Positions 5,756 to 64,000 of a DNA stretch of 64,000 nucleotides are shown in pieces. Position numbers and translations under genes: made by a program. The DNA lies in the IMG/VR virus record IMGVR_UViG_2897328257_000003, one strand, 5' to 3'. Below the pieces are notes generated by a model that had not been told where the DNA came from, did not search any database, and saw only the letters and a list, made by a program, of their open reading frames with translations. The number at the start of each line of letters is the position of its first letter. Position 1 is the stretch's first letter. The DNA is from a virus. Taxonomy: Duplodnaviria; Heunggongvirae; Uroviricota; Caudoviricetes.

Positions 5756-5791
5756 GTTGACCTCATTTGCCCTTAACGCCGGGTCGCGGAA

Positions 5792-6016: not shown

Positions 6017-6050
6017 AAACCCGGAGGGAAGCTACCGGATTTATGCAGAT

Positions 6051-8814: not shown

Positions 8815-8847
8815 ATCTGGGAAACGATTTTGTCGGAGGAAATTTTA

Positions 8848-9878: not shown

Positions 9879-10180
9879 GGGTGAGCATTTATATCGCCGG
9901 TCCAATGACGGGATATGAAAATTTCAACCGCGAGGCGTTTCACAGGGCGGAAGAAGCACTGAAACGGGAAGGGCATACCGTTTTAAACCCGGCAGTACTT
10001 CCGGACGGGCTGACTCAGCCGCAGTACATGGATATTTGCATGGCAATGATTCGTTGTGTGGATGCGGTTTATATGCTGAAAGGCTGGCAGCGATCGGCAG
10101 GCGCTAAGGCAGAACTGGCACTGGCGGAGAAACTGGGACATGCGGTTATTTTCCAGGAGGCAACCAGTGAGCGAAATTAA
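9875..10180 (+). CDS. DUF4406-like protein (nucleoside 2-deoxyribosyltransferase-like fold family)
   Basis: 101 aa; GTG start after AGGAGGG with overlapped upstream stop; N-terminal ..VSIYIAGPMTGYENFNREAF.. is the characteristic motif as recalled. Confidence 0.65.
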   Translation: MRVSIYIAGPMTGYENFNREAFHRAEEALKREGHTVLNPAVLPDGLTQPQYMDICMAMIRCVDAVYMLKGWQRSAGAKAELALAEKLGHAVIFQEATSERN

Positions 10181-10329
10181 TTACCAGGAGCTACGGCAGG
10201 TGAAAGAGAAAGCATAATCCAGATCTGAATAATTAAAATCAGCACTGTAAATAAAATTTAATCCTTAACCGGAGGGATTTCTGCACCCTCAGAACATCAG
10301 GAGACCGCCAGAAAGGGCGGTAATGAAAA

Positions 10330-10698
10330 ATGACTGAATTAACAAAAGAGCAATTAATCAAAGAAGCCAAATTAAAAATAGCGGTTGCGAAATGTTACCC
10401 TAATTCAGAGATGGCCAGGGTAGAGGGAGAGCTATTCAAAATTGCACTGGCATCGCTGGAGGCGGTTCCGGTGGCATGGCTGCATTCAGACAATGGCCTG
10501 GGTATTCCAGCAATAACCAGGAGTAAAAACGTTGCTGATAGTTGGTTATCAAAGGGCTGGTATGTTCAGCCGTTATATGTAGCCCAACCTGTACCGGTGG
10601 TGCCGGATGCTCGTCCATCTTTAAATAATGGCATTGTCGGATTTGATGAAGGCTGGAATGCCTGCCGGGATGCCATGCTTAATGGAGATAAATCATGA
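10330..10698 (+). CDS. Hypothetical protein (122 aa), first gene of a coupled three-gene module; C-terminal ..EGWNACRDAML.. motif
   Basis: ORF after a 150-bp AT-rich intergenic region with promoter-like sequence and a hairpin just before the start; stop overlaps the next start (ATGA). Confidence 0.6.
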   Translation: MTELTKEQLIKEAKLKIAVAKCYPNSEMARVEGELFKIALASLEAVPVAWLHSDNGLGIPAITRSKNVADSWLSKGWYVQPLYVAQPVPVVPDARPSLNNGIVGFDEGWNACRDAMLNGDKS

Positions 10699-11396
10699 TT
10701 AATCGTATCAAACTGGAGCACATCCTCGAATATGCCGGGCAGCAGAGGCATATTGGTCAGCATTGTAAAATTCCACCAGGAGATATGGTTGAAATCATGG
10801 AGATTGCCATGCGCAAGGCTGGCAACCCTCCGGTAACTCCGGGGCGTTTGCCTGGCGGTTTCACCATTGAGGAGGCGAAGGAGTTACATGAAGACCTGGT
10901 GCGCAGCCACATAAGCAAGGCTTTAAGTGGCGAAAAGATGAAGAAGAAGGATCTCGATGCTGATTTGCGCTGGATCCATGGGGTTATAGTCCAGGCCGCC
11001 TGGTTTGTAAAAGCATCACTGGAGCAGAATGTGCTAACGGGTAACTCTCAGGTAATCCCTGATGACGGTCGCGAACAGTTTGAAACACTTATCAGGTTCC
11101 ATGCAGATGATAAAAACCATGAAACATTATTGCTTCGTGCTAACGAAGGGATGAATTACCGGGATCCAAATGTGGATTTGGCATGGATATTCTGGAAATC
11201 CAGTCGAGAGCACATATTGCCTGGAAAAAGCGACAATAATCCAGCATCAGGCGATCAGGTAAGTGAATTAACAATGTGGGTGAAGCGGTTATCTCATTCC
11301 TTAAAAAGCGTTAATAAATCAAGCAAACTACCGGATAAAGCGATGGACTACCTGAAGCGAAACGGACTGATAAACGAGGAGAATATTTTACGATGA
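10695..11396 (+). CDS. Hypothetical protein (233 aa), second gene of the coupled module
   Basis: ATGA overlaps with both neighbours; no recognised domain. Confidence 0.6.
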   Translation: MINRIKLEHILEYAGQQRHIGQHCKIPPGDMVEIMEIAMRKAGNPPVTPGRLPGGFTIEEAKELHEDLVRSHISKALSGEKMKKKDLDADLRWIHGVIVQAAWFVKASLEQNVLTGNSQVIPDDGREQFETLIRFHADDKNHETLLLRANEGMNYRDPNVDLAWIFWKSSREHILPGKSDNNPASGDQVSELTMWVKRLSHSLKSVNKSSKLPDKAMDYLKRNGLINEENILR

Positions 11397-11476
11397 CCTG
11401 GCCTGAAGCGTTCATAACGGTAGGAATTGCAATGGCGGTGGCGCTGGTGGTGTATTCGATTTGCCGCTGGGGATAA
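11393..11476 (+). CDS. Putative 27-aa hydrophobic (single transmembrane-like) peptide, third gene of the module
   Basis: Hand-translated MTWPEAFITVGIAMAVALVVYSICRWG; start overlaps the upstream stop (ATGA); below ORF-track cut-off. Confidence 0.3.
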   Translation: MTWPEAFITVGIAMAVALVVYSICRWG

Positions 11477-11538
11477 AAACGGTTTGCGGGGAAAGAAGAG
11501 TTAAGTAGAATTGCTGCGGGTGCTTGAGGCTGTCTGCC

Positions 11539-17500: not shown

Positions 17501-20500
17501 NNNNNNNNNNNNNNNNNNNNNNNNNNNNNNNNNNNNNNNNNNNNNNNNNNNNNNNNNNNNNNNNNNNNNNNNNNNNNNNNNNNNNNNNNNNNNNNNNNNN
17601 NNNNNNNNNNNNNNNNNNNNNNNNNNNNNNNNNNNNNNNNNNNNNNNNNNNNNNNNNNNNNNNNNNNNNNNNNNNNNNNNNNNNNNNNNNNNNNNNNNNN
17701 NNNNNNNNNNNNNNNNNNNNNNNNNNNNNNNNNNNNNNNNNNNNNNNNNNNNNNNNNNNNNNNNNNNNNNNNNNNNNNNNNNNNNNNNNNNNNNNNNNNN
17801 NNNNNNNNNNNNNNNNNNNNNNNNNNNNNNNNNNNNNNNNNNNNNNNNNNNNNNNNNNNNNNNNNNNNNNNNNNNNNNNNNNNNNNNNNNNNNNNNNNNN
17901 NNNNNNNNNNNNNNNNNNNNNNNNNNNNNNNNNNNNNNNNNNNNNNNNNNNNNNNNNNNNNNNNNNNNNNNNNNNNNNNNNNNNNNNNNNNNNNNNNNNN
18001 NNNNNNNNNNNNNNNNNNNNNNNNNNNNNNNNNNNNNNNNNNNNNNNNNNNNNNNNNNNNNNNNNNNNNNNNNNNNNNNNNNNNNNNNNNNNNNNNNNNN
18101 NNNNNNNNNNNNNNNNNNNNNNNNNNNNNNNNNNNNNNNNNNNNNNNNNNNNNNNNNNNNNNNNNNNNNNNNNNNNNNNNNNNNNNNNNNNNNNNNNNNN
18201 NNNNNNNNNNNNNNNNNNNNNNNNNNNNNNNNNNNNNNNNNNNNNNNNNNNNNNNNNNNNNNNNNNNNNNNNNNNNNNNNNNNNNNNNNNNNNNNNNNNN
18301 NNNNNNNNNNNNNNNNNNNNNNNNNNNNNNNNNNNNNNNNNNNNNNNNNNNNNNNNNNNNNNNNNNNNNNNNNNNNNNNNNNNNNNNNNNNNNNNNNNNN
18401 NNNNNNNNNNNNNNNNNNNNNNNNNNNNNNNNNNNNNNNNNNNNNNNNNNNNNNNNNNNNNNNNNNNNNNNNNNNNNNNNNNNNNNNNNNNNNNNNNNNN
18501 NNNNNNNNNNNNNNNNNNNNNNNNNNNNNNNNNNNNNNNNNNNNNNNNNNNNNNNNNNNNNNNNNNNNNNNNNNNNNNNNNNNNNNNNNNNNNNNNNNNN
18601 NNNNNNNNNNNNNNNNNNNNNNNNNNNNNNNNNNNNNNNNNNNNNNNNNNNNNNNNNNNNNNNNNNNNNNNNNNNNNNNNNNNNNNNNNNNNNNNNNNNN
18701 NNNNNNNNNNNNNNNNNNNNNNNNNNNNNNNNNNNNNNNNNNNNNNNNNNNNNNNNNNNNNNNNNNNNNNNNNNNNNNNNNNNNNNNNNNNNNNNNNNNN
18801 NNNNNNNNNNNNNNNNNNNNNNNNNNNNNNNNNNNNNNNNNNNNNNNNNNNNNNNNNNNNNNNNNNNNNNNNNNNNNNNNNNNNNNNNNNNNNNNNNNNN
18901 NNNNNNNNNNNNNNNNNNNNNNNNNNNNNNNNNNNNNNNNNNNNNNNNNNNNNNNNNNNNNNNNNNNNNNNNNNNNNNNNNNNNNNNNNNNNNNNNNNNN
19001 NNNNNNNNNNNNNNNNNNNNNNNNNNNNNNNNNNNNNNNNNNNNNNNNNNNNNNNNNNNNNNNNNNNNNNNNNNNNNNNNNNNNNNNNNNNNNNNNNNNN
19101 NNNNNNNNNNNNNNNNNNNNNNNNNNNNNNNNNNNNNNNNNNNNNNNNNNNNNNNNNNNNNNNNNNNNNNNNNNNNNNNNNNNNNNNNNNNNNNNNNNNN
19201 NNNNNNNNNNNNNNNNNNNNNNNNNNNNNNNNNNNNNNNNNNNNNNNNNNNNNNNNNNNNNNNNNNNNNNNNNNNNNNNNNNNNNNNNNNNNNNNNNNNN
19301 NNNNNNNNNNNNNNNNNNNNNNNNNNNNNNNNNNNNNNNNNNNNNNNNNNNNNNNNNNNNNNNNNNNNNNNNNNNNNNNNNNNNNNNNNNNNNNNNNNNN
19401 NNNNNNNNNNNNNNNNNNNNNNNNNNNNNNNNNNNNNNNNNNNNNNNNNNNNNNNNNNNNNNNNNNNNNNNNNNNNNNNNNNNNNNNNNNNNNNNNNNNN
19501 NNNNNNNNNNNNNNNNNNNNNNNNNNNNNNNNNNNNNNNNNNNNNNNNNNNNNNNNNNNNNNNNNNNNNNNNNNNNNNNNNNNNNNNNNNNNNNNNNNNN
19601 NNNNNNNNNNNNNNNNNNNNNNNNNNNNNNNNNNNNNNNNNNNNNNNNNNNNNNNNNNNNNNNNNNNNNNNNNNNNNNNNNNNNNNNNNNNNNNNNNNNN
19701 NNNNNNNNNNNNNNNNNNNNNNNNNNNNNNNNNNNNNNNNNNNNNNNNNNNNNNNNNNNNNNNNNNNNNNNNNNNNNNNNNNNNNNNNNNNNNNNNNNNN
19801 NNNNNNNNNNNNNNNNNNNNNNNNNNNNNNNNNNNNNNNNNNNNNNNNNNNNNNNNNNNNNNNNNNNNNNNNNNNNNNNNNNNNNNNNNNNNNNNNNNNN
19901 NNNNNNNNNNNNNNNNNNNNNNNNNNNNNNNNNNNNNNNNNNNNNNNNNNNNNNNNNNNNNNNNNNNNNNNNNNNNNNNNNNNNNNNNNNNNNNNNNNNN
20001 NNNNNNNNNNNNNNNNNNNNNNNNNNNNNNNNNNNNNNNNNNNNNNNNNNNNNNNNNNNNNNNNNNNNNNNNNNNNNNNNNNNNNNNNNNNNNNNNNNNN
20101 NNNNNNNNNNNNNNNNNNNNNNNNNNNNNNNNNNNNNNNNNNNNNNNNNNNNNNNNNNNNNNNNNNNNNNNNNNNNNNNNNNNNNNNNNNNNNNNNNNNN
20201 NNNNNNNNNNNNNNNNNNNNNNNNNNNNNNNNNNNNNNNNNNNNNNNNNNNNNNNNNNNNNNNNNNNNNNNNNNNNNNNNNNNNNNNNNNNNNNNNNNNN
20301 NNNNNNNNNNNNNNNNNNNNNNNNNNNNNNNNNNNNNNNNNNNNNNNNNNNNNNNNNNNNNNNNNNNNNNNNNNNNNNNNNNNNNNNNNNNNNNNNNNNN
20401 NNNNNNNNNNNNNNNNNNNNNNNNNNNNNNNNNNNNNNNNNNNNNNNNNNNNNNNNNNNNNNNNNNNNNNNNNNNNNNNNNNNNNNNNNNNNNNNNNNNN

Positions 20501-23500
20501 NNNNNNNNNNNNNNNNNNNNNNNNNNNNNNNNNNNNNNNNNNNNNNNNNNNNNNNNNNNNNNNNNNNNNNNNNNNNNNNNNNNNNNNNNNNNNNNNNNNN
20601 NNNNNNNNNNNNNNNNNNNNNNNNNNNNNNNNNNNNNNNNNNNNNNNNNNNNNNNNNNNNNNNNNNNNNNNNNNNNNNNNNNNNNNNNNNNNNNNNNNNN
20701 NNNNNNNNNNNNNNNNNNNNNNNNNNNNNNNNNNNNNNNNNNNNNNNNNNNNNNNNNNNNNNNNNNNNNNNNNNNNNNNNNNNNNNNNNNNNNNNNNNNN
20801 NNNNNNNNNNNNNNNNNNNNNNNNNNNNNNNNNNNNNNNNNNNNNNNNNNNNNNNNNNNNNNNNNNNNNNNNNNNNNNNNNNNNNNNNNNNNNNNNNNNN
20901 NNNNNNNNNNNNNNNNNNNNNNNNNNNNNNNNNNNNNNNNNNNNNNNNNNNNNNNNNNNNNNNNNNNNNNNNNNNNNNNNNNNNNNNNNNNNNNNNNNNN
21001 NNNNNNNNNNNNNNNNNNNNNNNNNNNNNNNNNNNNNNNNNNNNNNNNNNNNNNNNNNNNNNNNNNNNNNNNNNNNNNNNNNNNNNNNNNNNNNNNNNNN
21101 NNNNNNNNNNNNNNNNNNNNNNNNNNNNNNNNNNNNNNNNNNNNNNNNNNNNNNNNNNNNNNNNNNNNNNNNNNNNNNNNNNNNNNNNNNNNNNNNNNNN
21201 NNNNNNNNNNNNNNNNNNNNNNNNNNNNNNNNNNNNNNNNNNNNNNNNNNNNNNNNNNNNNNNNNNNNNNNNNNNNNNNNNNNNNNNNNNNNNNNNNNNN
21301 NNNNNNNNNNNNNNNNNNNNNNNNNNNNNNNNNNNNNNNNNNNNNNNNNNNNNNNNNNNNNNNNNNNNNNNNNNNNNNNNNNNNNNNNNNNNNNNNNNNN
21401 NNNNNNNNNNNNNNNNNNNNNNNNNNNNNNNNNNNNNNNNNNNNNNNNNNNNNNNNNNNNNNNNNNNNNNNNNNNNNNNNNNNNNNNNNNNNNNNNNNNN
21501 NNNNNNNNNNNNNNNNNNNNNNNNNNNNNNNNNNNNNNNNNNNNNNNNNNNNNNNNNNNNNNNNNNNNNNNNNNNNNNNNNNNNNNNNNNNNNNNNNNNN
21601 NNNNNNNNNNNNNNNNNNNNNNNNNNNNNNNNNNNNNNNNNNNNNNNNNNNNNNNNNNNNNNNNNNNNNNNNNNNNNNNNNNNNNNNNNNNNNNNNNNNN
21701 NNNNNNNNNNNNNNNNNNNNNNNNNNNNNNNNNNNNNNNNNNNNNNNNNNNNNNNNNNNNNNNNNNNNNNNNNNNNNNNNNNNNNNNNNNNNNNNNNNNN
21801 NNNNNNNNNNNNNNNNNNNNNNNNNNNNNNNNNNNNNNNNNNNNNNNNNNNNNNNNNNNNNNNNNNNNNNNNNNNNNNNNNNNNNNNNNNNNNNNNNNNN
21901 NNNNNNNNNNNNNNNNNNNNNNNNNNNNNNNNNNNNNNNNNNNNNNNNNNNNNNNNNNNNNNNNNNNNNNNNNNNNNNNNNNNNNNNNNNNNNNNNNNNN
22001 NNNNNNNNNNNNNNNNNNNNNNNNNNNNNNNNNNNNNNNNNNNNNNNNNNNNNNNNNNNNNNNNNNNNNNNNNNNNNNNNNNNNNNNNNNNNNNNNNNNN
22101 NNNNNNNNNNNNNNNNNNNNNNNNNNNNNNNNNNNNNNNNNNNNNNNNNNNNNNNNNNNNNNNNNNNNNNNNNNNNNNNNNNNNNNNNNNNNNNNNNNNN
22201 NNNNNNNNNNNNNNNNNNNNNNNNNNNNNNNNNNNNNNNNNNNNNNNNNNNNNNNNNNNNNNNNNNNNNNNNNNNNNNNNNNNNNNNNNNNNNNNNNNNN
22301 NNNNNNNNNNNNNNNNNNNNNNNNNNNNNNNNNNNNNNNNNNNNNNNNNNNNNNNNNNNNNNNNNNNNNNNNNNNNNNNNNNNNNNNNNNNNNNNNNNNN
22401 NNNNNNNNNNNNNNNNNNNNNNNNNNNNNNNNNNNNNNNNNNNNNNNNNNNNNNNNNNNNNNNNNNNNNNNNNNNNNNNNNNNNNNNNNNNNNNNNNNNN
22501 NNNNNNNNNNNNNNNNNNNNNNNNNNNNNNNNNNNNNNNNNNNNNNNNNNNNNNNNNNNNNNNNNNNNNNNNNNNNNNNNNNNNNNNNNNNNNNNNNNNN
22601 NNNNNNNNNNNNNNNNNNNNNNNNNNNNNNNNNNNNNNNNNNNNNNNNNNNNNNNNNNNNNNNNNNNNNNNNNNNNNNNNNNNNNNNNNNNNNNNNNNNN
22701 NNNNNNNNNNNNNNNNNNNNNNNNNNNNNNNNNNNNNNNNNNNNNNNNNNNNNNNNNNNNNNNNNNNNNNNNNNNNNNNNNNNNNNNNNNNNNNNNNNNN
22801 NNNNNNNNNNNNNNNNNNNNNNNNNNNNNNNNNNNNNNNNNNNNNNNNNNNNNNNNNNNNNNNNNNNNNNNNNNNNNNNNNNNNNNNNNNNNNNNNNNNN
22901 NNNNNNNNNNNNNNNNNNNNNNNNNNNNNNNNNNNNNNNNNNNNNNNNNNNNNNNNNNNNNNNNNNNNNNNNNNNNNNNNNNNNNNNNNNNNNNNNNNNN
23001 NNNNNNNNNNNNNNNNNNNNNNNNNNNNNNNNNNNNNNNNNNNNNNNNNNNNNNNNNNNNNNNNNNNNNNNNNNNNNNNNNNNNNNNNNNNNNNNNNNNN
23101 NNNNNNNNNNNNNNNNNNNNNNNNNNNNNNNNNNNNNNNNNNNNNNNNNNNNNNNNNNNNNNNNNNNNNNNNNNNNNNNNNNNNNNNNNNNNNNNNNNNN
23201 NNNNNNNNNNNNNNNNNNNNNNNNNNNNNNNNNNNNNNNNNNNNNNNNNNNNNNNNNNNNNNNNNNNNNNNNNNNNNNNNNNNNNNNNNNNNNNNNNNNN
23301 NNNNNNNNNNNNNNNNNNNNNNNNNNNNNNNNNNNNNNNNNNNNNNNNNNNNNNNNNNNNNNNNNNNNNNNNNNNNNNNNNNNNNNNNNNNNNNNNNNNN
23401 NNNNNNNNNNNNNNNNNNNNNNNNNNNNNNNNNNNNNNNNNNNNNNNNNNNNNNNNNNNNNNNNNNNNNNNNNNNNNNNNNNNNNNNNNNNNNNNNNNNN

Positions 23501-52710: not shown

Positions 52711-53574
52711 CTAATCATCTATTTCGGTTGCCTTCTTATTCAGCAGACGAGAAGCGCGCCAGTAAACCAGCAACATCAGGCCCATTACGATAGTCAGCGT
52801 AATGCTGGTGGCTGCACCAAACGGCCAGTCACGAATATTGAGGAACTGGACCTTGATGACGTTACCGATCAGCAGGTTTTTCGCACCGCCCATCAGGTCG
52901 GATACATAGAACAGGCCCATCGCTGGCAGCATCACCAGCAGACATCCGGCAATAATTCCCGGCATCGTCAGTGGAATAATGATACGGATAAAAGTCTGTA
53001 ACTTGCTGGCACCGAGATCGCGCGCCGCCTCAAGCAACGGCTTATCCAGTTTTTCGATACTGGAGTACAGCGGCATCACCATAAACGGTAGCAGAATGTA
53101 AACCAGACCGATAATCACCGCACTGGGCGTGAACATGATACGAATTGGTGTGTCGATAACGCCCAGCCAGAGCAAAAACTCGTTGAGATAGCCTTTGGTG
53201 CTGAGGAAAATTTTCAGCCCGTAGATGCGAATCAGTGAGTTGGTCCAGAAGGGAACAATCAGCAGAAACAGCAGCAGCGGACGCACCTTGTGTGGTAGCT
53301 TCGCTAGAAACCAGGCAAACGGGTAGCCCAGCACCAGGCAGGCGAGGGTGGCGATCAGCGCCATATTCAGCGAGTGCAATAGCACTTCAAAATAGAGCGG
53401 ATCGAGCAGACGCGTGTAGTTATCCAGCGTAAAGACCATTTTGACGAAACTGGCGTCGTCGCGGGTCAAAAAGCTGGTGCCAATGATCATCAGGTTGGGC
53501 AGAAAGACAAACAACACAAGCCAACCGACAATAGTGACAATCACTACATTCTGGAACTTACTTGTGTTCTTCAT
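52711..53574 (-). CDS. potB: Spermidine/putrescine ABC transporter permease PotB, C-terminus apparently altered
   Basis: 287 aa, multi-TM permease, overlaps the potA stop as in the pot operon; ends ..[11 protein letters not shown] and is ~12 aa longer than the 275 aa I recall for K-12 PotB; no potC downstream. Confidence 0.85.
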
Positions 53575-54694
53575 CAGCCAGTACGACCTCCCAGCTTTCT
53601 ACCCAATTAATGGCCATTTTTTGGTCGAGAGAGTGGTCAAAGTCAGGGTCGTCTTCATTGAAGAATTCGCTGACCATCACCATCTTGCCATTTTCCAGTT
53701 CAACAACCGACTCCAGCGTCATGCCTTTGTAGTTACGCTCACGAACGTAACCAATCAGCCCTTCAGCGTGGTTGTCGTCGTTAATCTCTTCAACACGTAA
53801 GTCTTCCGGGCGCAGCAGAACATGCAGTTTTTGCCCCGGTTCAACGGCGAAGTTAACGTAGATATTACATTCGCGGCCTTCAACGTTGGCGCGTACGCGC
53901 TGCTCGTCTAGACGTTCGATGACAGTGGCGTTAAACATATTGATTTCGCCAATGAAGCCGGCAACAAACAGGTTTTTCGGCTCTTCGTAAATTTCGCGCG
54001 GTGTACCATCTTGCTCAATACGACCCTCGCGCATCACCACAATCCTGTCTGACATGGTGAGCGCTTCTTCCTGATCGTGAGTGACAAAGACGAAGGTAAT
54101 ACCAAGCTTACGCTGTAACGCTTTCAGCTCGTTCTGCATTTGCTTACGCAGTTTGTAATCCAGCGCTGAGAGCGACTCATCCAGCAACAACAGACGAGGC
54201 TTGTTAACCACCGCGCGAGCAATGGCGACGCGTTGCTGTTGACCACCAGAGAGCTGATGCGGTTTACGTTGAGCGAAGGTTTCCAGTTGCACCATCCGCA
54301 GGGCTTCCATCACGCGGGGCGTAATTTCAGCAGCGGGGGTTTTTTGCATGCGCAACCCAAAGGCCACATTTTCGAACACGGTCATGTGGGGGAAAAGTGC
54401 GTAGCTTTGGAAAACAGTGTTCACATAGCGGTTTTCCGCCGGAACGTGGGTGATGTCCTCGTTATCCAGCATGATGCGTCCGGAATCAACAGTTTCCAGA
54501 CCTGCAATCAGGCGAAGAACGGTTGTTTTACCGCAGCCAGAAGGGCCAAGCAGCGTGAGGAACTCGCCATTGTTGATAGTCAGATCCAGCTGGGGAATGA
54601 CCTCTTTACCATCAAAGCATTTGCGAATTCCCGCCAATTGCACCAGCGGTGAAAGCGAACTCGGTTGTTTATTCAATTTTTTACTCTGTCCCAT
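53558..54694 (-). CDS. potA: Spermidine/putrescine ABC transporter ATP-binding protein PotA
   Basis: 378 aa; Walker [13 protein letters not shown] signature LSGGQQQR, Walker B LLLLDE; divergent from pepT. Confidence 0.95.
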
Positions 54695-54943
54695 GTAAAC
54701 GCAACGGATGGCTTACCGATGCGGGGTTTGTGGTTAACCACCTTGGTGACTCTTAATGAGGGCGGTAATTCTACGGCAAACCGCTTGAATCGCCAATCTT
54801 TGTTGTGAATTACTGGCTTAGCTTTATATTCATTAAGGTAATGCTGATAAATATTCCCGCTTGCAGGGGTAAAAGTGACCTGACGCAATATTTGTCTTTT
54901 CTTGCTTCTTAATAATGTTGTCACAAAAAGTGAGGGTGACTAC

Positions 54944-56173
54944 ATGGATAAACTACTTGAGCGATTTTTGAACTACGTGTCTCTGGATACCCAATCAAAA
55001 GCAGGGGTGAGACAGGTTCCCAGCACGGAAGGCCAATGGAAGTTATTGCATCTGCTGAAAGAGCAGCTCGAAGAGATGGGGCTTATCAATGTGACCTTAA
55101 GTGAGAAGGGCACTTTGATGGCGACGTTACCGGCTAACGTCCCTGGCGATATCCCGGCGATTGGCTTTATTTCTCATGTGGATACCTCACCGGATTGCAG
55201 CGGCAAAAATGTGAATCCGCAAATTGTTGAAAACTATCGCGGTGGCGATATTGCGCTGGGTATCGGCGATGAAGTTTTATCACCGGTTATGTTCCCGGTG
55301 CTGCATCAGCTACTGGGTCAGACGCTGATTACTACCGATGGTAAAACCTTGTTAGGTGCCGATGACAAAGCCGGTATTGCAGAAATCATGACCGCGCTGG
55401 CGGTATTGCAACAGAAAAACATTCCGCATGGTGATATTCGCGTCGCCTTTACCCCGGATGAAGAAGTGGGCAAAGGGGCGAAACATTTTGATGTTGATGC
55501 CTTCGATGCCCGCTGGGCTTACACTGTTGACGGTGGTGGCGTAGGTGAACTGGAGTTTGAAAACTTCAACGCCGCATCGGTCAATATCAAAATTGTCGGT
55601 AACAATGTTCATCCGGGCACGGCGAAAGGAGTGATGGTAAATGCGCTGTCGCTGGCGGCACGTATTCATGCGGAAGTTCCGGCGGATGAAAGCCCGGAAA
55701 TGACAGAAGGCTATGAAGGTTTCTATCACCTGGCGAGCATGAAAGGCACCGTTGACCGAGCCGATATGCACTACATCATCCGTGATTTCGACCGTAAACA
55801 GTTTGAAGCGCGTAAACGTAAAATGATGGAGATCGCCAAAAAAGTGGGCAAAGGGTTACATCCTGATTGCTACATTGAACTGGTGATTGAAGACAGTTAC
55901 TACAATATGCGCGAGAAAGTGGTTGAGCATCCGCATATTATCGATATCGCCCAGCAGGCGATGCGTGACTGCGATATTGAACCGGAACTGAAACCGATCC
56001 GCGGCGGTACCGACGGCGCGCAGTTGTCGTTTATGGGATTACCGTGCCCGAACCTGTTCACTGGCGGTTACAACTATCATGGTAAGCATGAGTTTGTGAC
56101 TCTGGAAGGTATGGAAAAAGCGGTGCAGGTGATTGTCCGTATTGCCGAGTTAACGGCGCAACGGAAGTCGTGA
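54944..56173 (+). CDS. pepT: Peptidase T (tripeptide aminopeptidase)
   Basis: Begins [19 protein letters not shown] (internal Met of the track ORF 54902..56173); M20-family metal-binding motifs; conserved position next to potA. Confidence 0.95.
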
Positions 56174-56318
56174 TTGCCCGATGCGTATGTGGACTGCCAA
56201 TTACCGGGATGAAACCGTTATATTGATACTGGTCAACATACTTATCGTGCCTACAGGCGTTCAGTGCATGTAGGCACGATAAGGCGCAATCAGCGCCGCA
56301 TCCGGCTTAAATCCAAAC

Positions 56319-57440
56319 TTACCCTTCGAAGAACCAATACCCGCTATTGACCAGCGCCGCGAGCATCGCGAGGAATGACGGATCTTCCAGCGCATCGCCA
56401 AAATTCTCCGCAGTCAGCGCAATGTTGCTGGCGAGTGCATCCAGTGCCGGACGGTGCGGGGAATCGATCTTCTCACCATTGGCATACACGTCGTCGCCAA
56501 TGCGCAATACGCGCAGACCACCCAGGCGCACCAGCACATCACCTTGTTTCAGCGCATCGTAGATTTCATCTGGCTGATAAGGCGGTTCCGGCGGCGCGAT
56601 ATCCAGTTCATGACGTGACTGGGATATAAACTCGCCAAACCATTGCTTAAAGTGTTCCGGCTGGTTGATCAATTCGAGCATCATCTCACGCAGTTTATCC
56701 ATCTCTTGCGGCAGAACATCCGCAGGATGAGCGCGAGGTGGAACATCAGGATCGCTGTAGTAGTTGCCGCCCAGTTCACGTTGCAGCACATAATCGGCAA
56801 ATCCACTAATCAGTTCCCGCGTATTTGGCGCGCGAAAGCCCACGGAATAGTTCATCGCATTTTCCAGCGCGTAGCCTTCATGCGGGAATCCTGGCGGAAT
56901 ATAAAGAATATCACCAGGCTCCAGCTCTTCATCGATGATGGCTTCGAACGGATCGACCTGTAACAGATCCGGATGTGGGCAGTGCTGTTTCATTTGCAGC
57001 TTTTCGCCCACTCGCCAGCGACGACGTCCGGTACCCTGAATGATAAACACGTCGTACTGATCGAGATGCGGGCCGACGCCGCCGCCAGGTACAGAAAAAG
57101 AGATCATCAGATCATCAATACGCCAGTCCGGTAGTTCACGGAACGGTCGCATCAGCGCGGCGGTCGGCTCATGCCAGTGGTTTACTGCCTGTACCAGTAA
57201 TGACCAGTTGGTTTCACCGAGATGATCGTAGCTTTCGAACGGGCCGTGGCTGACCTGCCATTTGCCATCCTGGTGACTGACCAGTCGACTGTCAACTTCG
57301 CTTTCCATCGCCAGACCCGCCAACTCGTCTGGAGAGATCGGGTCAATAAAATTATTAAAGCCGCGTTTTAACACCACCGGGCGTTTCTGCCAGTGACGTT
57401 CAAGAAAATCGGGCCAGTTAAGAGTGAGTTGGTATTCCAT
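56319..57440 (-). CDS. roxA: Ribosomal protein uL16 arginine hydroxylase RoxA (YcfD), cupin/JmjC-like
   Basis: 373 aa from the second ATG (MEYQLTLNWPDFLERHW..); conserved neighbour of pepT in E. coli. Confidence 0.9.
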   Translation of the reverse strand: MEYQLTLNWPDFLERHWQKRPVVLKRGFNNFIDPISPDELAGLAMESEVDSRLVSHQDGKWQVSHGPFESYDHLGETNWSLLVQAVNHWHEPTAALMRPFRELPDWRIDDLMISFSVPGGGVGPHLDQYDVFIIQGTGRRRWRVGEKLQMKQHCPHPDLLQVDPFEAIIDEELEPGDILYIPPGFPHEGYALENAMNYSVGFRAPNTRELISGFADYVLQRELGGNYYSDPDVPPRAHPADVLPQEMDKLREMMLELINQPEHFKQWFGEFISQSRHELDIAPPEPPYQPDEIYDALKQGDVLVRLGGLRVLRIGDDVYANGEKIDSPHRPALDALASNIALTAENFGDALEDPSFLAMLAALVNSGYWFFEG

Positions 57441-57491
57441 GTTAAGCATCCACAGGCTGGTATCTGCAACCGATTATAACGGATGCTTAAC
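57441..57491 (-). promoter_or_regulatory. roxA 5' region: 11-bp inverted repeat with 29-nt spacer containing a TATAAT on the roxA strand
   Basis: gttaagcatcc ... ggatgcttaac; right arm repeats the ATGCTTAAC that precedes the roxA start; spacer contains ccgTTATAATcgg on the minus strand. Confidence 0.3.
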
Positions 57492-57667
57492 GTAATGCGT
57501 GAAGTATGGACATATTTTATCAATTAGTGTTTTTTGCCGTTTCATAATGTTTCAGGTTGTGCGTTATGTTTTTGATTATAAACAGATTTGTGATTTTTCT
57601 TGTTCCAGCTTGTTTCACGTTGTAGCCCTTTGTGCAACGATCGGTGTAGTTAATGGTGTAGTTAATT

Positions 57668-58918
57668 GTGATGACCGGATTCAAAATTATGAGCAGAGCA
57701 CTTAACAAACTGAGCGATACACAGCTGAGGAAAATCAACGGCACACCCGCCCAAAAAACAGCCTTTCTTAATGACGGTGGAAACCTGAGCGTCAGGCATT
57801 CAACCAGTGGCCTTTTAACCTGGTATTTCACTTACAGGGCCGGAACGGGAAGGGGGGCACCACCGGAACGCATTAAGCTGGGAAATTATCCTGATCTGAG
57901 CCTGAAATCAGCCAGGGAAAAAGCCGCCCAGTGTCGCGCATGGCTGGCAGAGGGGAAAAATCCACGTCATGAAATGAATTACACCGTACAGGAAGCGTTA
58001 AAGCCGGTAACGGTTGGCGATGCGCTCACCTACTGGCTTGAGTCGTACGCAAAGGAAAACCGTGTGGATTATGACCCACTGAAAAAGCGGCTAAATAATC
58101 ACGTAATACAGCACATTGGCCCTATGCCGCTGGATAAATGCGAGCTACGGCACTGGCTGGCCTGTTTTGATCGGGTGGCAAAGAAAGCCCCTGTTTCCGC
58201 CGGGTTCCTGCTACAGACATGCAAGCAGGCGCTTAAGTTCTGCAGGAAGCGGCGCTATGCAATCAGCAACGTTCTTGATGATATGAGTGTGGCGGACGTT
58301 GGGAAAAAACCGGATATAAGTGAGCGTGTCTTAAGTAACAAAGAACTTGGCGAATTATTGCAGGCACTGGACAAAAAAATATTTTCCCCTTACTACGTCG
58401 CACTAATCCGCCTCCTGATTGTTTTCGGATGCCGGACAGTAGAACTGAGGTTATCGGAGATCGGCGAGTGGGATTTTACCGAAATGCTCTGGACCGTTCC
58501 GAAGGAGCACAGCAAAACGAAGGTAGCCATATTCCGGCCCATACCGGAAGCGATACTGCCGTTCGTCACGCAGCTGGTGGAGCAGAACAGGCACACGGGC
58601 TTATTGCTGGGGGAAGTGAAACAGGAAACCAGCGTATCGCAGTACGGCAGATTAGCGCACAGGAGGCTAAAACACCCTCAATGGTCATTGCATGACATCC
58701 GGCGCACCTTTACAACCATGCTGAACGATTTAGGCGTTGATCCTCACGTCGTGGAGCAGCTTACAGGTCATCAGATGCCAGGGATGCAACGAGTCTATAA
58801 CCACTCCCGTTATCTCGATGCGAAACGTGATGCGCTGGATATGTGGACGGAGCGGTTAGGAATACTGGCGGGAACACATGAAAACGTAACCACGCTACCA
58901 GTAACCAGAATAAAATAA
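57668..58918 (+). CDS. Tyrosine integrase, P4 family (DUF4102-type N-terminus); start may be 57671 or 57689
   Basis: 416-aa ORF; N-terminal ..LSDTQLRKINGT..DGGNLSV..W.FTYR..G..P..+.LGNYPDLSLKSAREKA.. pattern of P4-type integrases. Confidence 0.85.
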   Translation: MMTGFKIMSRALNKLSDTQLRKINGTPAQKTAFLNDGGNLSVRHSTSGLLTWYFTYRAGTGRGAPPERIKLGNYPDLSLKSAREKAAQCRAWLAEGKNPRHEMNYTVQEALKPVTVGDALTYWLESYAKENRVDYDPLKKRLNNHVIQHIGPMPLDKCELRHWLACFDRVAKKAPVSAGFLLQTCKQALKFCRKRRYAISNVLDDMSVADVGKKPDISERVLSNKELGELLQALDKKIFSPYYVALIRLLIVFGCRTVELRLSEIGEWDFTEMLWTVPKEHSKTKVAIFRPIPEAILPFVTQLVEQNRHTGLLLGEVKQETSVSQYGRLAHRRLKHPQWSLHDIRRTFTTMLNDLGVDPHVVEQLTGHQMPGMQRVYNHSRYLDAKRDALDMWTERLGILAGTHENVTTLPVTRIK

Positions 58919-59144
58919 TTTTTTTCGTGTTTTTTCAGTATGCGCATACTGGATAAGTGCACAGATACAACGTGAAACAATGTGCAACAACGTGACANNN
59001 NNNNNNNNATACTGGCGGGAACACATGAAAACGTAACCACGCTACCAGTAACCAGAATAAAATAATTTTTTTCGTGTTTTTTCAGTATGCGCATACTGGA
59101 TAAGTGCACAGATACAACGTGAAACAATGTGCAACAACGTGACA
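58862..59144. repeat. Exact ~136-bp direct duplication flanking a ~10-nt N-run (approx. 58998-59008); probable contig-join artefact
   Basis: atactggcgggaacacatgaaaacg...caacaacgtgaca occurs identically before and after the N-run; first copy includes the integrase 3' end. Confidence 0.6.
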
Positions 59145-59254
59145 CAATCACGAACAAGAGGCCAAAAAGAATACAGATTTGTAAGTTACTGATTTTCAAT
59201 GCTCAGCTGGTTTTTTATACATTAGTGAATTACGCGTTAAAGCGTGCGAAAAAA

Positions 59255-59285
59255 GGCATAAAACAAGATTTTATGCCTTTGTATT
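59255..59285 (+). terminator. Hairpin plus T-tract; candidate rho-independent terminator between the integrase and alpA regions
   Basis: aaaaaa-ggcataaaa-caaga-ttttatgcc-tttgtatt. Confidence 0.45.
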
Positions 59286-59439
59286 AACATGAATTTAAAT
59301 GATTTTATCCTGATTATTCCTCTTTCTGTAAACCATGCGACACCAACATTTGCCAACTCTGAATCATCCTGACACAATCAGACACATCCCAACGCAATAG
59401 AACACGAAATAACTCTTTAAGAAACGAAAGGGGGCAATA

Positions 59440-59628
59440 GTGTTAAGCACTGATCGGTTTATACGTGAAAAAGAATGCGAAAAGCTAACAGGCCTTAGCC
59501 GCTCATGCCGCTACCGCCTGGAAAAGGCCGGACAATTCCCATCACGTCGTAAACTTGGTGGGCGTTCTGTTGGCTGGTCTTTATCTGAGGTTTTGGCCTG
59601 GAAGGATAGCTGCAAGGCAGTTCACTAA
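59440..59628 (+). CDS. alpA: AlpA-family phage transcriptional regulator
   Basis: 62 aa; GTG start after AAGGGGG; ..RRKLGGRSVGWSLSEVLAW.. matches the AlpA family pattern. Confidence 0.8.
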   Translation: MLSTDRFIREKECEKLTGLSRSCRYRLEKAGQFPSRRKLGGRSVGWSLSEVLAWKDSCKAVH

Positions 59629-59968
59629 AAAGACTGGCGGCACACAGTCGCCACACATCCACTAATACAGAGATATAACTATGAAGATTGAATATGCGCC
59701 CGAACGTGGGCGGGGATTCGTTCGCCCTGGTGAAACTGAAAAACAACAAAATTGGGGTTTTTCAGGCATAAAAAAAGCGGCCCCGATATGGAGCCGCCTT
59801 TCTGAACAATTAACCTGCTGCGCCTTATGTGTATGTGATCCCAAACATAAGCACGGGAATGATAGCCGCTATCAGGCTGGTGGGCAATTACCTTGCTTGT
59901 TGGGGCCGTATTGTGCTGCCATTTTCATCCGTTCAGAACGTGAATATTTTTTTAGAAACTCATCAAGG

Positions 59969-60591
59969 NNNNNNNNNNNNNNNNNNNNNNNNNNNNNNNN
60001 NNNNNNNNNNNNNNNNNNNNNNNNNNNNNNNNNNNNNNNNNNNNNNNNNNNNNNNNNNNNNNNNNNNNNNNNNNNNNNNNNNNNNNNNNNNNNNNNNNNN
60101 NNNNNNNNNNNNNNNNNNNNNNNNNNNNNNNNNNNNNNNNNNNNNNNNNNNNNNNNNNNNNNNNNNNNNNNNNNNNNNNNNNNNNNNNNNNNNNNNNNNN
60201 NNNNNNNNNNNNNNNNNNNNNNNNNNNNNNNNNNNNNNNNNNNNNNNNNNNNNNNNNNNNNNNNNNNNNNNNNNNNNNNNNNNNNNNNNNNNNNNNNNNN
60301 NNNNNNNNNNNNNNNNNNNNNNNNNNNNNNNNNNNNNNNNNNNNNNNNNNNNNNNNNNNNNNNNNNNNNNNNNNNNNNNNNNNNNNNNNNNNNNNNNNNN
60401 NNNNNNNNNNNNNNNNNNNNNNNNNNNNNNNNNNNNNNNNNNNNNNNNNNNNNNNNNNNNNNNNNNNNNNNNNNNNNNNNNNNNNNNNNNNNNNNNNNNN
60501 NNNNNNNNNNNNNNNNNNNNNNNNNNNNNNNNNNNNNNNNNNNNNNNNNNNNNNNNNNNNNNNNNNNNNNNNNNNNNNNNNNNNNNNNNNN
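59969..60591. other. Unresolved sequence: 623-nt run of N inside the satellite element
   Basis: Contiguous n characters. Confidence 1.
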
Positions 60592-60708
60592 AGTGATTAT
60601 ACTGGAATCCAGTTGAGTGTTTATCACTCAATGCAAACGAGGCTGAAAAGGATTGCCGTCCTTTCGCAGCCTCTGACCACCAACGATAGCGAAAGTATCG
60701 AGGTAGCT

Positions 60709-60909
60709 ATGAGAAATCATACCACACACCCGCAAGGGCGGGACTCGCACAACCTGAATAAATTCACCTGGCGCTTTATGCAGTGCCTGACAGACAGCAT
60801 TGCAATATTCACCGTTACCGCTGCCACTGAGCGCGAAGCACGCGCACAGCTGCCGCACGCACATCTTATTTTTGTCGCCCGTATTCGTCAGGGGGTGTGC
60901 CGTGCTTAA
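60709..60909 (+). CDS. Icd-like (host cell division inhibitor-like) small protein
   Basis: 66 aa from ATG 60709 after GAGGTAG; ..ATEREARAQLPHAHLIFVARI.. matches the Icd-like motif recalled from P4-like islands. Confidence 0.55.
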   Translation: MRNHTTHPQGRDSHNLNKFTWRFMQCLTDSIAIFTVTAATEREARAQLPHAHLIFVARIRQGVCRA

Positions 60910-61087
60910 AACCTTCCGTGTATTTGCCAGCGCTGTTAACCCACTAGGCCACACAATTGGTATCGCTCAGAATGTGAAGGCTGTTAATGTTCAGACGGCT
61001 ATTGCTGCGGTGAGAAGCGAATCATCAGAATATGGCTTATCACAAGTCATTATTTCAGCAGTGTATGAATTAAAAGAGGTGCATTAA
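60902..61087 (+). CDS. Hypothetical small protein (61 aa, GTG start)
   Basis: ORF beginning inside the icd-like stop region after AGGGGG; ends TAATG overlapping the next start. Confidence 0.4.
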   Translation: MLKTFRVFASAVNPLGHTIGIAQNVKAVNVQTAIAAVRSESSEYGLSQVIISAVYELKEVH

Positions 61088-61278
61088 TGAAGGAAATTAC
61101 ATTACACGAAGCCGCTGAACGTGCGCACCAGACAGAAATTATTTGCCGACTTCTTGAGGTGTACCCTAATAAATTAAATGATGGTGATATATCCGCATTA
61201 GCTGGCCTTCTGGCAAAACTTTCTGGAAGTGTTGCGCTGTGGTTAATTGATGAGAGAGCCGAACGCTATGAAAAATAA
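61087..61278 (+). CDS. Hypothetical small protein (63 aa)
   Basis: ORF in a tightly packed co-directional block upstream of the primase. Confidence 0.5.
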   Translation: MKEITLHEAAERAHQTEIICRLLEVYPNKLNDGDISALAGLLAKLSGSVALWLIDERAERYEK

Positions 61279-61510
61279 TAAACTGGCGACCAGTGAATTA
61301 AGAAGCCTTGCCAACAGCGCAATATCTTTAAACAACGCAGCAAACGAAGTAATGAACATGTGGCTTCAGTCGCTGGTGAATAATGAACGCGATGAATCAA
61401 CCGCAAGATTAATATTAGCCGTTTCTGAATTACTGGATAGTTCAACCAGCAAAATAGAGAGCATATCAGAGAAGATTAACGGCTTATCAGGTCACGCTAT
61501 CGGAGAATAA
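61268..61510 (+). CDS. Hypothetical small protein (80 aa from ATG 61268)
   Basis: ORF overlapping the previous stop by 11 nt; ORF track offers a longer version from 61247. Confidence 0.5.
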   Translation: MKNNKLATSELRSLANSAISLNNAANEVMNMWLQSLVNNERDESTARLILAVSELLDSSTSKIESISEKINGLSGHAIGE

Positions 61511-61515
61511 AAATA

Positions 61516-61815
61516 ATGAAACTTAAATATCCTGGCTTAACTGCCAGCGGCAAAACTCGCACTAAATTCATGCGCGGGGATATTTACCGCGACCAGTACG
61601 GCGGCACGGTAACGATTAAAGGCGTGGAGGAACGGCGCATCACTTACCGCCGTGAAGGCTACGAATATGACTGCGTTATGCCTGTTTATCAGTTCGATCG
61701 TGATTTTTCTCTGGTACAGGCAGCGCCCCGCAGTAAACCAACCAGCAGGGAGAAAGCACGCGCCAATATTCAGGAAATAAAAAAGATGCTTAACGTATTC
61801 AGGGGTAAAAAATGA
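61516..61815 (+). CDS. Hypothetical protein (99 aa) immediately upstream of and coupled to the primase gene
   Basis: ORF with GGAG upstream; stop overlaps the primase start (ATGA). Confidence 0.55.
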   Translation: MKLKYPGLTASGKTRTKFMRGDIYRDQYGGTVTIKGVEERRITYRREGYEYDCVMPVYQFDRDFSLVQAAPRSKPTSREKARANIQEIKKMLNVFRGKK

Positions 61816-63560
61816 AACTGGCACCGAACGTAAAAAAACAGCCACGCGGAATAAAACACAAAGACACAGAGGTGATTATTTTCGCGGGTAGTGATGCGTG
61901 GGCACATGCAAAACAGTGGCAGGAGCAGGACGGCCCCGCATCCGGCGATAATGTGCCTCCTGTGTGGCTTGGGCCAAATCAGCTTGCCGAACTTGATGCA
62001 CTGCAAATTGTTCCTGATGGAAAAAAACGCGTAAGGCTGTACCAGGCAGGAGAACTGGACTTGGTGGAGACCAAAAAGATTGGTCAGAAGCTGGCGGCGG
62101 CAGATATTCAGGACACAAATTTTTACCCCGAAGGAATGCACGCCCAGAAGTGTGAAAACTGGCGGCGCTATCTGAATGCTGAGCGTGAAAATATTGCCGC
62201 AGGGCTTACCATGCCGGAGCAGAAAAATACGCAACTGGCACAAATGGCAGACAGTGAGCGCGCCCAGCTGCTTGCTGGTCGATTTGATGGCGTTTGCGTA
62301 CATCCTGAAAGTGAAATCGTTCACGTATGGCGCGGCGGGGTATGGTGTCCGGTCAGCACAATGGAACTTAGCCGCGAAATGGTGGCGATCTATTCAGAGC
62401 ACAGGGCCACTTTCAGCAAGCGCGTAATCAATAACGCCGTGGAAGCGTTAAAAGTTATTGCCGAACCAATGGGCGAGCCGTCTGGCGATTTGCTGCCGTT
62501 CGCCAATGGTGCGCTTGACCTGAAAACAGGGGAATTTTCCCCGCACACGCCGGAGAACTGGATCACCACGCACAACGGCATTGAGTACACGCCACCAGCA
62601 CCAGGGGAGAACATCCGCGATAACGCGCCAAACTTTCATAAATGGCTTGAGCACGCAGCCGGAAAAGACCCGCGCAAGATGATGCGTATATGTGCCGCGC
62701 TGTACATGATTATGGCGAACCGGTACGACTGGCAGATGTTTATTGAGGCCACCGGAGACGGCGGGAGCGGTAAAAGTACATTCACACACATAGCCAGCCT
62801 TCTGGCAGGGAAACAGAACACGGTAAGCGCTGAAATGACATCGCTTGATGATGCTGGTGGACGTGCGCAGGTTGTCGGGAGTCGTCTTATCGTCCTGGCT
62901 GACCAGCCGAAATATACAGGCGAAGGAACGGGCATCAAGAAAATCACAGGCGGCGACCCCGTGGAAATTAACCCGAAATATGAAAAGCGTTTCACGGCGG
63001 TAATCAGGGCGGTGGTGCTGGCGACCAACAACAACCCGATGATATTCACCGAACGGGCCGGAGGTGTGGCACGTCGTCGCGTGATTTTCCGTTTCGACAA
63101 TATCGTCAGTGAGGCCGAAAAAGACAGGGAGCTACCGGAAAAGATTGCGGCTGAAATCCCCGTTATTATCCGCCGATTGCTGGCGAACTTTACCGACCCT
63201 GAGAAGGCACGGGCTTTACTACTGGAACAGCGTGACGGTGATGAAGCACTGGCAATAAAGCAACAGACGGATCCGGTTATTGAGTTTTGCCAGTTCCTGA
63301 ATTTTCTGGAGGAAGCGCGCGGCCTGATGATGGGTGGCGGTGGTGATTCAGTGAAGTACACGACCAGGAACAGCCTTTACCGCGTCTATCTGGCGTTTAT
63401 GGCATACGCGGGCAGGAGCAAACCGCTAAACGTGGCTGAGTTCAGCAAGGCCATGAAGCCAGCGGCGAAAGTTTACGGGCATGAATATATTACGCGAAAA
63501 GTTAAGGGAGTAACGCAGACCAACGCAATTACAACAGACGATTGCGACGCGTTTTTATAA
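61812..63560 (+). CDS. Phage/plasmid primase-helicase, P4 alpha-like (SF3 P-loop NTPase C-terminal domain)
   Basis: 582 aa; Walker A ..EATGDGGSGKSTFTHIA..; Walker B-like ..LIVLADQP..; standard position in P4-like satellites. Confidence 0.85.
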   Translation: MKLAPNVKKQPRGIKHKDTEVIIFAGSDAWAHAKQWQEQDGPASGDNVPPVWLGPNQLAELDALQIVPDGKKRVRLYQAGELDLVETKKIGQKLAAADIQDTNFYPEGMHAQKCENWRRYLNAERENIAAGLTMPEQKNTQLAQMADSERAQLLAGRFDGVCVHPESEIVHVWRGGVWCPVSTMELSREMVAIYSEHRATFSKRVINNAVEALKVIAEPMGEPSGDLLPFANGALDLKTGEFSPHTPENWITTHNGIEYTPPAPGENIRDNAPNFHKWLEHAAGKDPRKMMRICAALYMIMANRYDWQMFIEATGDGGSGKSTFTHIASLLAGKQNTVSAEMTSLDDAGGRAQVVGSRLIVLADQPKYTGEGTGIKKITGGDPVEINPKYEKRFTAVIRAVVLATNNNPMIFTERAGGVARRRVIFRFDNIVSEAEKDRELPEKIAAEIPVIIRRLLANFTDPEKARALLLEQRDGDEALAIKQQTDPVIEFCQFLNFLEEARGLMMGGGGDSVKYTTRNSLYRVYLAFMAYAGRSKPLNVAEFSKAMKPAAKVYGHEYITRKVKGVTQTNAITTDDCDAFL

Positions 63561-63574
63561 TTTTTTGTAAAAGC

Positions 63575-63795
63575 CATCTACCCCATCTACCTGAACGAAA
63601 TAAACGCATATTATTCAACATGATAAGTGGGTATAGGGCTAGGTAGAAGGCTAATAAAAGCTCTCTACCTCTTCTACCTGATTTTATCAGTTTCAGGTAG
63701 CAGGGTAGACGGCAGGTAGAGGAGTCAAAAAAGCTATCTACCCGCTGAAAGCGGCGCCATTACTGACATGATGAGCATTCGGGTAGATGGGTAGA
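63575..63795. repeat. Iteron array, putative replication origin of the satellite element
   Basis: At least 11 copies of GGTAGA/TCTACC in both orientations within ~220 bp (e.g. catctaccccatctacc, tctacctcttctacc, ggtagcagggtagacggcaggtagagg, gggtagatgggtagagg) just downstream of the primase gene. Confidence 0.6.
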
Positions 63796-63845
63796 GGGGG
63801 GGGAGGCACAACTAAAAACTTTTTAAACGAGGGGGGGTGAAAATA

Positions 63846-64000
63846 AATGCGCATACATAAAAATCACTTAACAAACATGCCAGCCGAATACATGAATCAG
63901 GGGCGACAAATGACCCAAAAACGCAGAGACAGAACAGAGCCAAAATATAAAGCGTTAGACATGACTGAGCACACCTTAAAGGTGGCAATCAGAACGATAG
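63846..64000 (+). CDS. Hypothetical protein, 5' partial view (runs off the window end)
   Basis: ATG 63846 preceded by GAGGGGGGG; open frame to the window end (MRIHKNHLTNMPAEYMNQGRQMTQKRRDRTEPKYKALDMTEHTLKVAIRTI..). Confidence 0.35.

Follow-up and report, generated by a model that had tools for sequence, protein, structure and literature searches.

Left part of a probable capsid-forming phage-inducible chromosomal island between roxA and phoQ in IMG/VR record IMGVR_UViG_2897328257_000003

The stretch of DNA examined here (the window) comprises the 64,000 nucleotides of IMG/VR virus record IMGVR_UViG_2897328257_000003, assigned to the Caudoviricetes. Its rightmost part lies beyond the bacterial gene roxA (ycfD), where a sequence-only reading had placed a P4-like satellite. 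Here, it is argued that this segment is very probably the left 6.5 kb of an approximately 15.3-kb capsid-forming phage-inducible chromosomal island (cf-PICI) inserted between roxA and phoQ. Positions 53000-64000 are 100% identical, runs of N included, to locus L009 of the scaffolded record CP023200.1 (GCA_002290225.1), so numbered among the loci compared (L001 and onward), and this identity allowed the element to be followed past the end of the window.

Genes and features at the locus

An open reading frame (ORF) scan of positions 54000-64000 recovered potA, pepT, and roxA, followed by a rightward block in which all assigned genes of the island lie on the plus strand, in the order int, alpA, small genes, pri-rep, and replication origin (ori). 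The features of this region are as follows.

56319-57440, minus strand: roxA
57508-57517, plus strand: attL crossover core GGACATATTT, which marks the left border of the element and lies 67 bp upstream of the start of roxA
57643-57666, plus strand: two tandem 12-bp repeats GGTGTAGTTAAT, candidate arm-type integrase (Int) sites on the attL side
57689-58918, plus strand: int, P4-superfamily tyrosine integrase of 409 aa (Pfam Arm-DNA-bind_3 and Phage_integrase), read from the RefSeq-style ATG
58862-59144, no strand: scaffolding artifact, a 136-bp exact duplicate flanking an 11-N gap (58998-59008)
59440-59628, plus strand: alpA, regulator of the AlpA family (PF05930, 5e-18)
59969-60591, no strand: 623-N scaffold gap over the regulatory region, hiding about 1.1 kb that corresponds to L006 7673-8780
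60712-60909, plus strand: Icd-like small protein of 65 aa (NCBIfam NF033153 phage_ICD_like, 54.2 bits against a cut-off of 25; phrog_6196)
60902-61087, plus strand: small ORF of 61 aa, full-length match to phrog_3672, function unassigned
61087-61278, plus strand: small ORF of 63 aa, full-length match to phrog_1478, function unassigned
61268-61510, plus strand: small ORF of 80 aa, full-length match to phrog_5796, function unassigned
61516-61815, plus strand: DUF4222 protein of 99 aa (PF13973, 1e-23), immediately upstream of the primase
61812-63560, plus strand: Pri-Rep replication initiator of 582 aa (D5_N, DUF5906, Pox_D5; TIGR01613 "phage/plasmid primase, P4 family")
63568-63805, no strand: predicted replication origin, an AT-rich stretch flanked by (T)CTACC iteron sets that face both ways
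63910-64000, plus strand: start of a hypothetical protein of 83 aa (gene table of L009), cut by the window end

The integrase, the AlpA-like and Icd-like genes, the primase/helicase, and the iterons that the sequence-only reading had listed after roxA were thus all recovered by the ORF map, by Pfam, NCBIfam, and PHROG matches, and by iteron counts; its four small ORFs correspond to the three at 60902-61510 together with the DUF4222 gene. The int frame is also open from a GTG at 57668. The three small ORFs found no match in Pfam, NCBIfam, or PADLOC, and they were likewise called in L005-L010. The placement of the DUF4222 gene before the primase is kept in the published island EcCICFT073, in the Sakai prophage Sp7, and in an island beside a tRNA-Pro gene, all discussed below. 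Pri-Rep itself combines a superfamily 3 (SF3) helicase with a C-terminal domain of P4-family primases.

The iterons begin 17 bp past the primase stop codon and form opposed sets around an AT-rich stretch at approximately 63595-63625, accompanied by the repeat families D1 and D2 and by many inverted pairs. Exact TCTACC/GGTAGA occurs 13 times in the window against about 5 expected, a count that no shuffle reached, and 10 of the 13 occurrences fall within 63577-63795. This layout agrees with that described for PICI origins (PMC6092414, Fig. 2), and the segment is predicted to act as an origin by homology to the experimentally tested pri-rep-ori segment of EcCICFT073.

Insertion junction and attachment site

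In Escherichia coli K-12, only 75 bp separate the phoQ stop codon from the roxA start codon, with no island between them, and an empty, contiguous roxA–phoQ site was found in 4822 of 5426 complete E. coli genomes. Because of these two observations, the genes that follow roxA are clearly an insertion and not ancestral, as the sequence-only reading had proposed. Approximately 11% of the complete genomes lack a contiguous site, and a PICI-type island was present in every occupied copy inspected (CFT073, 2015C-3905, Sakai, and L006-L009); the islands of CFT073, Sakai, and the complete relative 2015C-3905 share the left half of the element in the window. The empty-site count was preferred for estimating occupancy. 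A count of the int-alpA module (792 genomes) overestimates occupancy of the roxA–phoQ site, because an int module of about 91% identity also occurs at tqsA (L005).

To locate the crossover core, the left junction (from the window and L001) and the right junction (from L001) were aligned to the empty site of K-12. K-12 carries GGGCATATTT at the place homologous to the core, overlapping the phoQ stop codon by 2 nt, and the core GGACATATTT stands at the left junction in the window and again, as attR, directly abutting phoQ in L001, L004, L006, L007, and L008. The two T residues that end the core double as the first two bases of the phoQ TAA stop codon in complement, so that the stop is regenerated on integration. 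The two cores lie 15,263 bp apart, and the element is bounded by roxA and phoQ in L006, L007, and L008. Direct repeats at the insertion point, which the sequence-only reading had suggested looking for, are therefore present, and with cores at both junctions and an empty site in K-12 the proposal of a mobile phage satellite at this position held.

That reading had also proposed a non-tRNA target, either in the roxA promoter region or at the 3′ end of the gene beyond it. The second alternative proved correct, the core overlapping the phoQ stop codon by 2 nt, but the site had already been published: for EcCICFT073 and EcCIRM12579, Table S1 of Fillol-Salom et al. 2018 (PMC6092414) gives the attachment (att) core GGACATATTT and the location ycfD-phoQ, and the core and site found here are identical to the EcCICFT073 entry. 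The same study describes the site as specific to PICIs and not used by prophages. A link between PICIs and phoQ was found in none of the main texts of the literature consulted; the site is given in that supplement. A tRNA gene as integration target was considered and rejected: neither ARAGORN nor Rfam at gathering thresholds found a tRNA or transfer-messenger RNA (tmRNA) gene in the whole window, and a permissive Rfam scan of the junction (57300-57900) was also empty, as expected from the earlier impression that no tRNA-like sequence lies there.

The 12-bp repeat GGTGTAGTTAAT has only its two tandem hits in the window, against 0.04 expected, and L006 has a further tandem pair, 74-97 bp inward of attR. 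These repeats are plausible arm-type binding sites of the integrase.

Two other repeats were observed at the junctions. The motif ACAACGTGA(A/C)A, followed by k-mer matching, has an inverted copy between attL and int (57610-57624, minus strand), two copies just downstream of int (58966-58980 and 58987-58995, plus strand) that recur through the artifactual duplication at 59113-59142, and one copy near attR (L006 20498-20506); these are candidate sites for an accessory recombination or regulatory protein. In addition, the native spacer of phoQ and roxA contains an 11-bp inverted repeat, GTTAAGCATCC ... GGATGCTTAAC, at 57441-57491, with the att core on one side and the start codon of roxA on the other. 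K-12 has this repeat too, and it could serve as a regulatory element of roxA or as a hairpin at the 3′ end of phoQ.

Capsid and packaging genes beyond the window

No N interrupts L009 8781-20378, a segment that matches the gap-free contig L006 at 99.99% identity, so that the primase and the genes after it are physically joined. Past the window end, the gene order is the 83-aa ORF, SSB, PerC, HK97-type capsid, S78 protease, portal, head completion/adaptor protein, gp6-like connector, HNH endonuclease, TerS (Terminase_4), TerL, and a 93-aa ORF. Pfam searches of the L009 proteins returned SSB, PerC, Phage_capsid, Peptidase_S78, portal, HCP, connector, HNH, Terminase_4, and TerL, with the capsid, protease, portal, adaptor, connector, HNH, TerS, and TerL matches all at or above the curated cut-offs. 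SatelliteFinder (PMC10085698) defines cf-PICIs by 11 core components. Compared with that definition, the core set of the element is complete, and its size is 15.3 kb, with about 10-15 kb typical of the class. Tail and holin or lysis genes are absent from the attL-attR gene tables of L006-L009. The 15.4-kb prototype of this class, EcCIEDL933, and the biology of cf-PICIs have been described by Alqurainy et al. (bioRxiv 10.1101/2022.09.08.507074).

The portion within the window could also belong to a classical, non-capsid-forming PICI of the EcCICFT073 type, which would travel in helper-made capsids through redirection of the Rpp or TerS type, given that int, alpA, icd, the DUF4222 gene, pri-rep, and ori are common to classical PICIs and cf-PICIs and that the same primase occurs in a classical PICI at tqsA (L005, with a lambda-E-type capsid, HDPD, and Nu1). 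However, the contig that carries the primase extends, unbroken by N, as far as the portal, adaptor, connector, HNH, TerS, and TerL genes, and SatelliteFinder (PMC10085698) excludes the portal, adaptor, and connector from the classical type, so that this alternative is very unlikely.

Variable anti-phage cargo, which had been anticipated beyond the window end, was not encountered; SSB, PerC, and the capsid and packaging module stand there instead, and PADLOC returned no defense match for nine small unassigned ORFs and PerC. The PerC-family regulator of L009 is 94% identical to Sakai PchE. Homologs of PerC/Pch on such islands are reported activators of the locus of enterocyte effacement (LEE).

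Comparison with P4

The 13 proteins of P4 (NC_001609) were searched by tblastn (E ≤ 0.01) against the full 15.3-kb element (L006 5359-20631), and only int, alpha, and vis found a match. P4 Int is 23% identical to the Int of the element over about 400 aa, and P4 Vis is 47% identical to its AlpA. Alpha aligns to Pri-Rep at 40% identity in residues 326-756 only, that is, in its helicase and ori-binding part, and nothing in the 582-aa Pri-Rep corresponds to the N-terminal primase domain of alpha. The genes sid, delta, psu, epsilon, cII, gop, and beta gave no tblastn match in the 15.3 kb, nor do the gene tables of the element hold any Psu or Ogr/Delta Pfam domain.

The resemblance to P4 extends to an arm-binding tyrosine integrase, tandem 12-bp arm repeats on both sides of the attP core, a Vis/AlpA-type regulator, an SF3 helicase with a nearby iteron origin, and an Icd-type gene. 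In contrast, the iteron sequences of the two elements differ, and the att site of the present element lies at the end of a protein gene, whereas P4 integrates at a tRNA gene, tRNA-Leu (leuX). The present element would also build its own capsid and steal tails.

A P4-like satellite at this locus would imply a P2-type helper, capsid remodeling by Sid and Psu, derepression through Epsilon and Delta, and a defense hotspot beyond the window. The homology of Int, AlpA/Vis, and the helicase part of alpha, together with the Icd-like gene and arm repeats resembling those of P4 attP, speaks in its favor. Yet PMC6092414 restricts the proteins shared by PICIs and P4 to exactly these three (AlpA, Pri-Rep, and Int), and only distantly; HK97-type head and terminase genes stand downstream; and the counterpart of the 623-N gap in relatives holds only small YlcI/YnfO-like ORFs. 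SatelliteFinder (PMC10085698) defines P4-like satellites by seven core components, int, psu, delta, sid, alpA, epsilon, and alpha, among which the integrase and the AlpA/Vis regulator, both common to PICIs too, were found here, and the psu-delta-sid operon and Epsilon were not. A P4-like satellite was accordingly rejected on this seven-component definition and is highly improbable. The assignment to the P4 family therefore stood insofar as Int, AlpA, and the primase are distant homologs of P4 Int, Vis, and alpha, but the label of P4-like satellite did not: the remaining P4 genes named above are missing, and Int and Pri-Rep are 96% and 91% identical, respectively, to those of EcCICFT073.

Relatives of the island

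At least 80% of the 15.3 kb is matched in each of 126 complete E. coli genomes; for the 30 best matches listed, identity is 92-97%. The cf-PICI family, its prototypes, the site, and the 10-bp core are all published, and near-identical copies are present in many public genomes; the element is thus already known.

In overall organization the closest counterpart is EcCIEDL933. From strain type, size, and gene content, we infer that the Sakai entry "prophage Sp7; untypable" (NC_002695.2 1594711-1610171) is this island. EcCIEDL933/Sp7 shares with the present element the roxA-phoQ site, the size (15.4-15.5 kb vs 15.3 kb), and the order int, alpA, icd-like gene, DUF4222 gene, primase, SSB, perC/pchE, capsid, protease, portal, adaptor, connector, HNH, TerS, and TerL. 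The packaging module of Sakai Sp7 is 97.5% identical at the nucleotide level and its int about 95% identical. In contrast, its replication protein has 710 aa, compared to the 582-aa EcCICFT073-like protein found here, and only the first ~350 nt of its gene align at the nucleotide level; the regulatory region between alpA and icd differs as well. In the Sakai annotation, ECs_1595 (L013 34297-34737) is called a "holin protein" within Sp7, at the position of the L009 HNH gene (PF01844). This label is probably a legacy misannotation, and it could wrongly trip filters that treat a holin as forbidden.

EcCICFT073 (AE014075.1 1377749-1389210), the prototype Gram-negative PICI, has the same att core GGACATATTT, ycfD-phoQ location, left-half organization, and ori position, in addition to the high identity of its Int and Pri-Rep. 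Unlike the present element, it measures 11.4 kb, shows nucleotide similarity over only about 39% of the present element, and carries a lambda-E-like capsid gene and a head-decoration gene without portal or TerL, thus needing helper capsids and terminase; the present element has a full HK97-type head and terminase module.

Two further islands carry related modules. In L005 5440-16600 (GCA_005395745.1), an identical 582-aa primase and an int region of ~91% identity lie in a classical PICI with a lambda-E-type capsid, HDPD, and a Nu1-type TerS; int is split into two ORFs there, and the island adjoins a gene of the AI-2E-transporter family. This site is taken to be tqsA, listed for EcCI042 in PMC6092414 (Table S1). 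In L003 8852-17477 (Z1323HEC0108), an icd-to-primase block of ~95% identity is combined with a different integrase beside a tRNA-Pro gene (yejM-yejO). One replication module therefore occurs at a tRNA gene as well as at the non-tRNA site by phoQ, according to the int module that accompanies it.

Assembly state of the record

The window contains four runs of N (4412-4422; 11539-52025, of 40,487 N; 58998-59008; and 59969-60591), two of which interrupt the island. At the first of these, positions 58862-58997, covering the 3′ end of int and the region downstream, exactly equal 59009-59144. The duplication is an artifact of overlapping contig ends and not biology, because the 136-bp segment is single-copy in the gap-free relatives L006, L007, and L001; in complete genomes, the matching segments fall short of the query by 147 bp. 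At the second, the counterpart of the 623-N gap in L006 (7673-8780) holds small ORFs on the minus strand, including one clear and one weak YlcI/YnfO-like gene.

Further on in L009, after an 11-N gap and about 8.2-9.6 kb past the window end, positions 20379-21749 hold a fragment of a different PICI-type island, with an Icd-like gene, a DUF4222 gene, and a 605-aa primase gene of 68-72% nucleotide identity to the first primase. The contig of this fragment starts at a position homologous to the contig start after the 623-N gap, which suggests a regulatory repeat common to two islands in this genome. The fragment could reflect a true tandem array or a scaffolding misplacement.

Elsewhere in the window, positions 4423-11538 are the early region of a lambdoid prophage (replication protein P, YdaT, and others), 100% identical to several genomes of Shiga toxin-producing E. 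coli (STEC), and the right flank of the 40,487-N run resumes just before potA. The interval 11539-52025 looks like a largely unassembled prophage by the pot operon, bridged, at a guess, by a reference-guided scaffolder.

Strength of the assignment

Several points weigh against assigning this segment to an intact cf-PICI. The window ends before the packaging genes, and the call depends on how the same public record continues and on contigs identical to it. The scaffold is broken at 58998-59008 and at 59969-60591, and the source record breaks 244 bp before the expected attR, which lies outside its contig. With the regulatory region partly in an N gap, this copy is not demonstrably intact, and its own induction, excision, and transfer would follow by analogy with the prototypes alone.

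Some of these points would also suit a defective prophage remnant that lacks an independent life cycle, comparable to "prophage Sp7; untypable" as annotated in Sakai, and the absence of tail and lysis genes, together with assembly gaps that leave the intactness of this copy undemonstrated, is compatible with such a remnant. Against it, the organization is kept, the element recurs in the 126 complete genomes over at least 80% of its length, and all ORFs seen are intact; moreover, a prototype of the same architecture is inducible and transferable in experiments, and the site is one used by PICIs, not prophages. Decay of an ordinary prophage is thus scarcely credible as an explanation, and a cf-PICI remains by far the preferred assignment.

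Proposed life cycle

For a cf-PICI of this type, the steps of the cycle may be drawn from the near-identical prototypes EcCICFT073 and EcCIEDL933. Infection by a helper phage, or its induction, would raise alpA expression, and AlpA would in turn switch on excision, replication through Pri-Rep and ori, and the late genes. The island would then make its own small capsids and package its own DNA by means of its own terminase and HNH protein, taking only tails from a lambdoid helper for transfer.

In EcCICFT073, induction of alpA by the helper is independent of the SOS response and AlpA, as master activator, is required for the island cycle, Int serves both to integrate and to excise the island, and the pri-rep-ori segment is capable of autonomous replication (PMC6092414). 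Islands of the cf-PICI class form their own small capsids, use their own TerS, TerL, and HNH to package their own DNA only, and obtain only tails from the helper; with HK106 and HK446 as helpers, EcCIEDL933 was inducible and transferable in experiments (bioRxiv 10.1101/2022.09.08.507074). A mechanism for the spread of cf-PICIs across species is reported to have been identified (bioRxiv 10.1101/2025.02.11.637232).

Implications

The position of the island, at the phoQ stop codon and 67 bp upstream of the roxA start, raises an unlikely but conceivable effect on host gene expression. Integration could separate roxA from the sequence natively upstream of it or from read-through out of phoPQ, and new sequence takes the place of that 3′ of the phoQ stop. 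If such an effect exists, expression of the ribosomal hydroxylase RoxA, or termination of phoQ transcripts, would differ in the ~11% of E. coli whose site is occupied.

The finding matters little for discovery and is useful as annotation: the region is best labeled a cf-PICI of the EcCIEDL933/Sp7 type with an EcCICFT073-type replication module, instead of P4-like or "untypable prophage". The sole modest point is the mosaic of EcCICFT073-type replication and EDL933/Sp7-type capsid modules, which fits the known gene flow between the left halves of PICIs and cf-PICIs (bioRxiv 10.1101/2022.09.08.507074; PMC10085698). Related integrases use different sites, as the comparison of L005 with the present element illustrates, and the occurrence of the same primase allele with two packaging modules at two att sites amounts to module shuffling among E. 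coli satellites.

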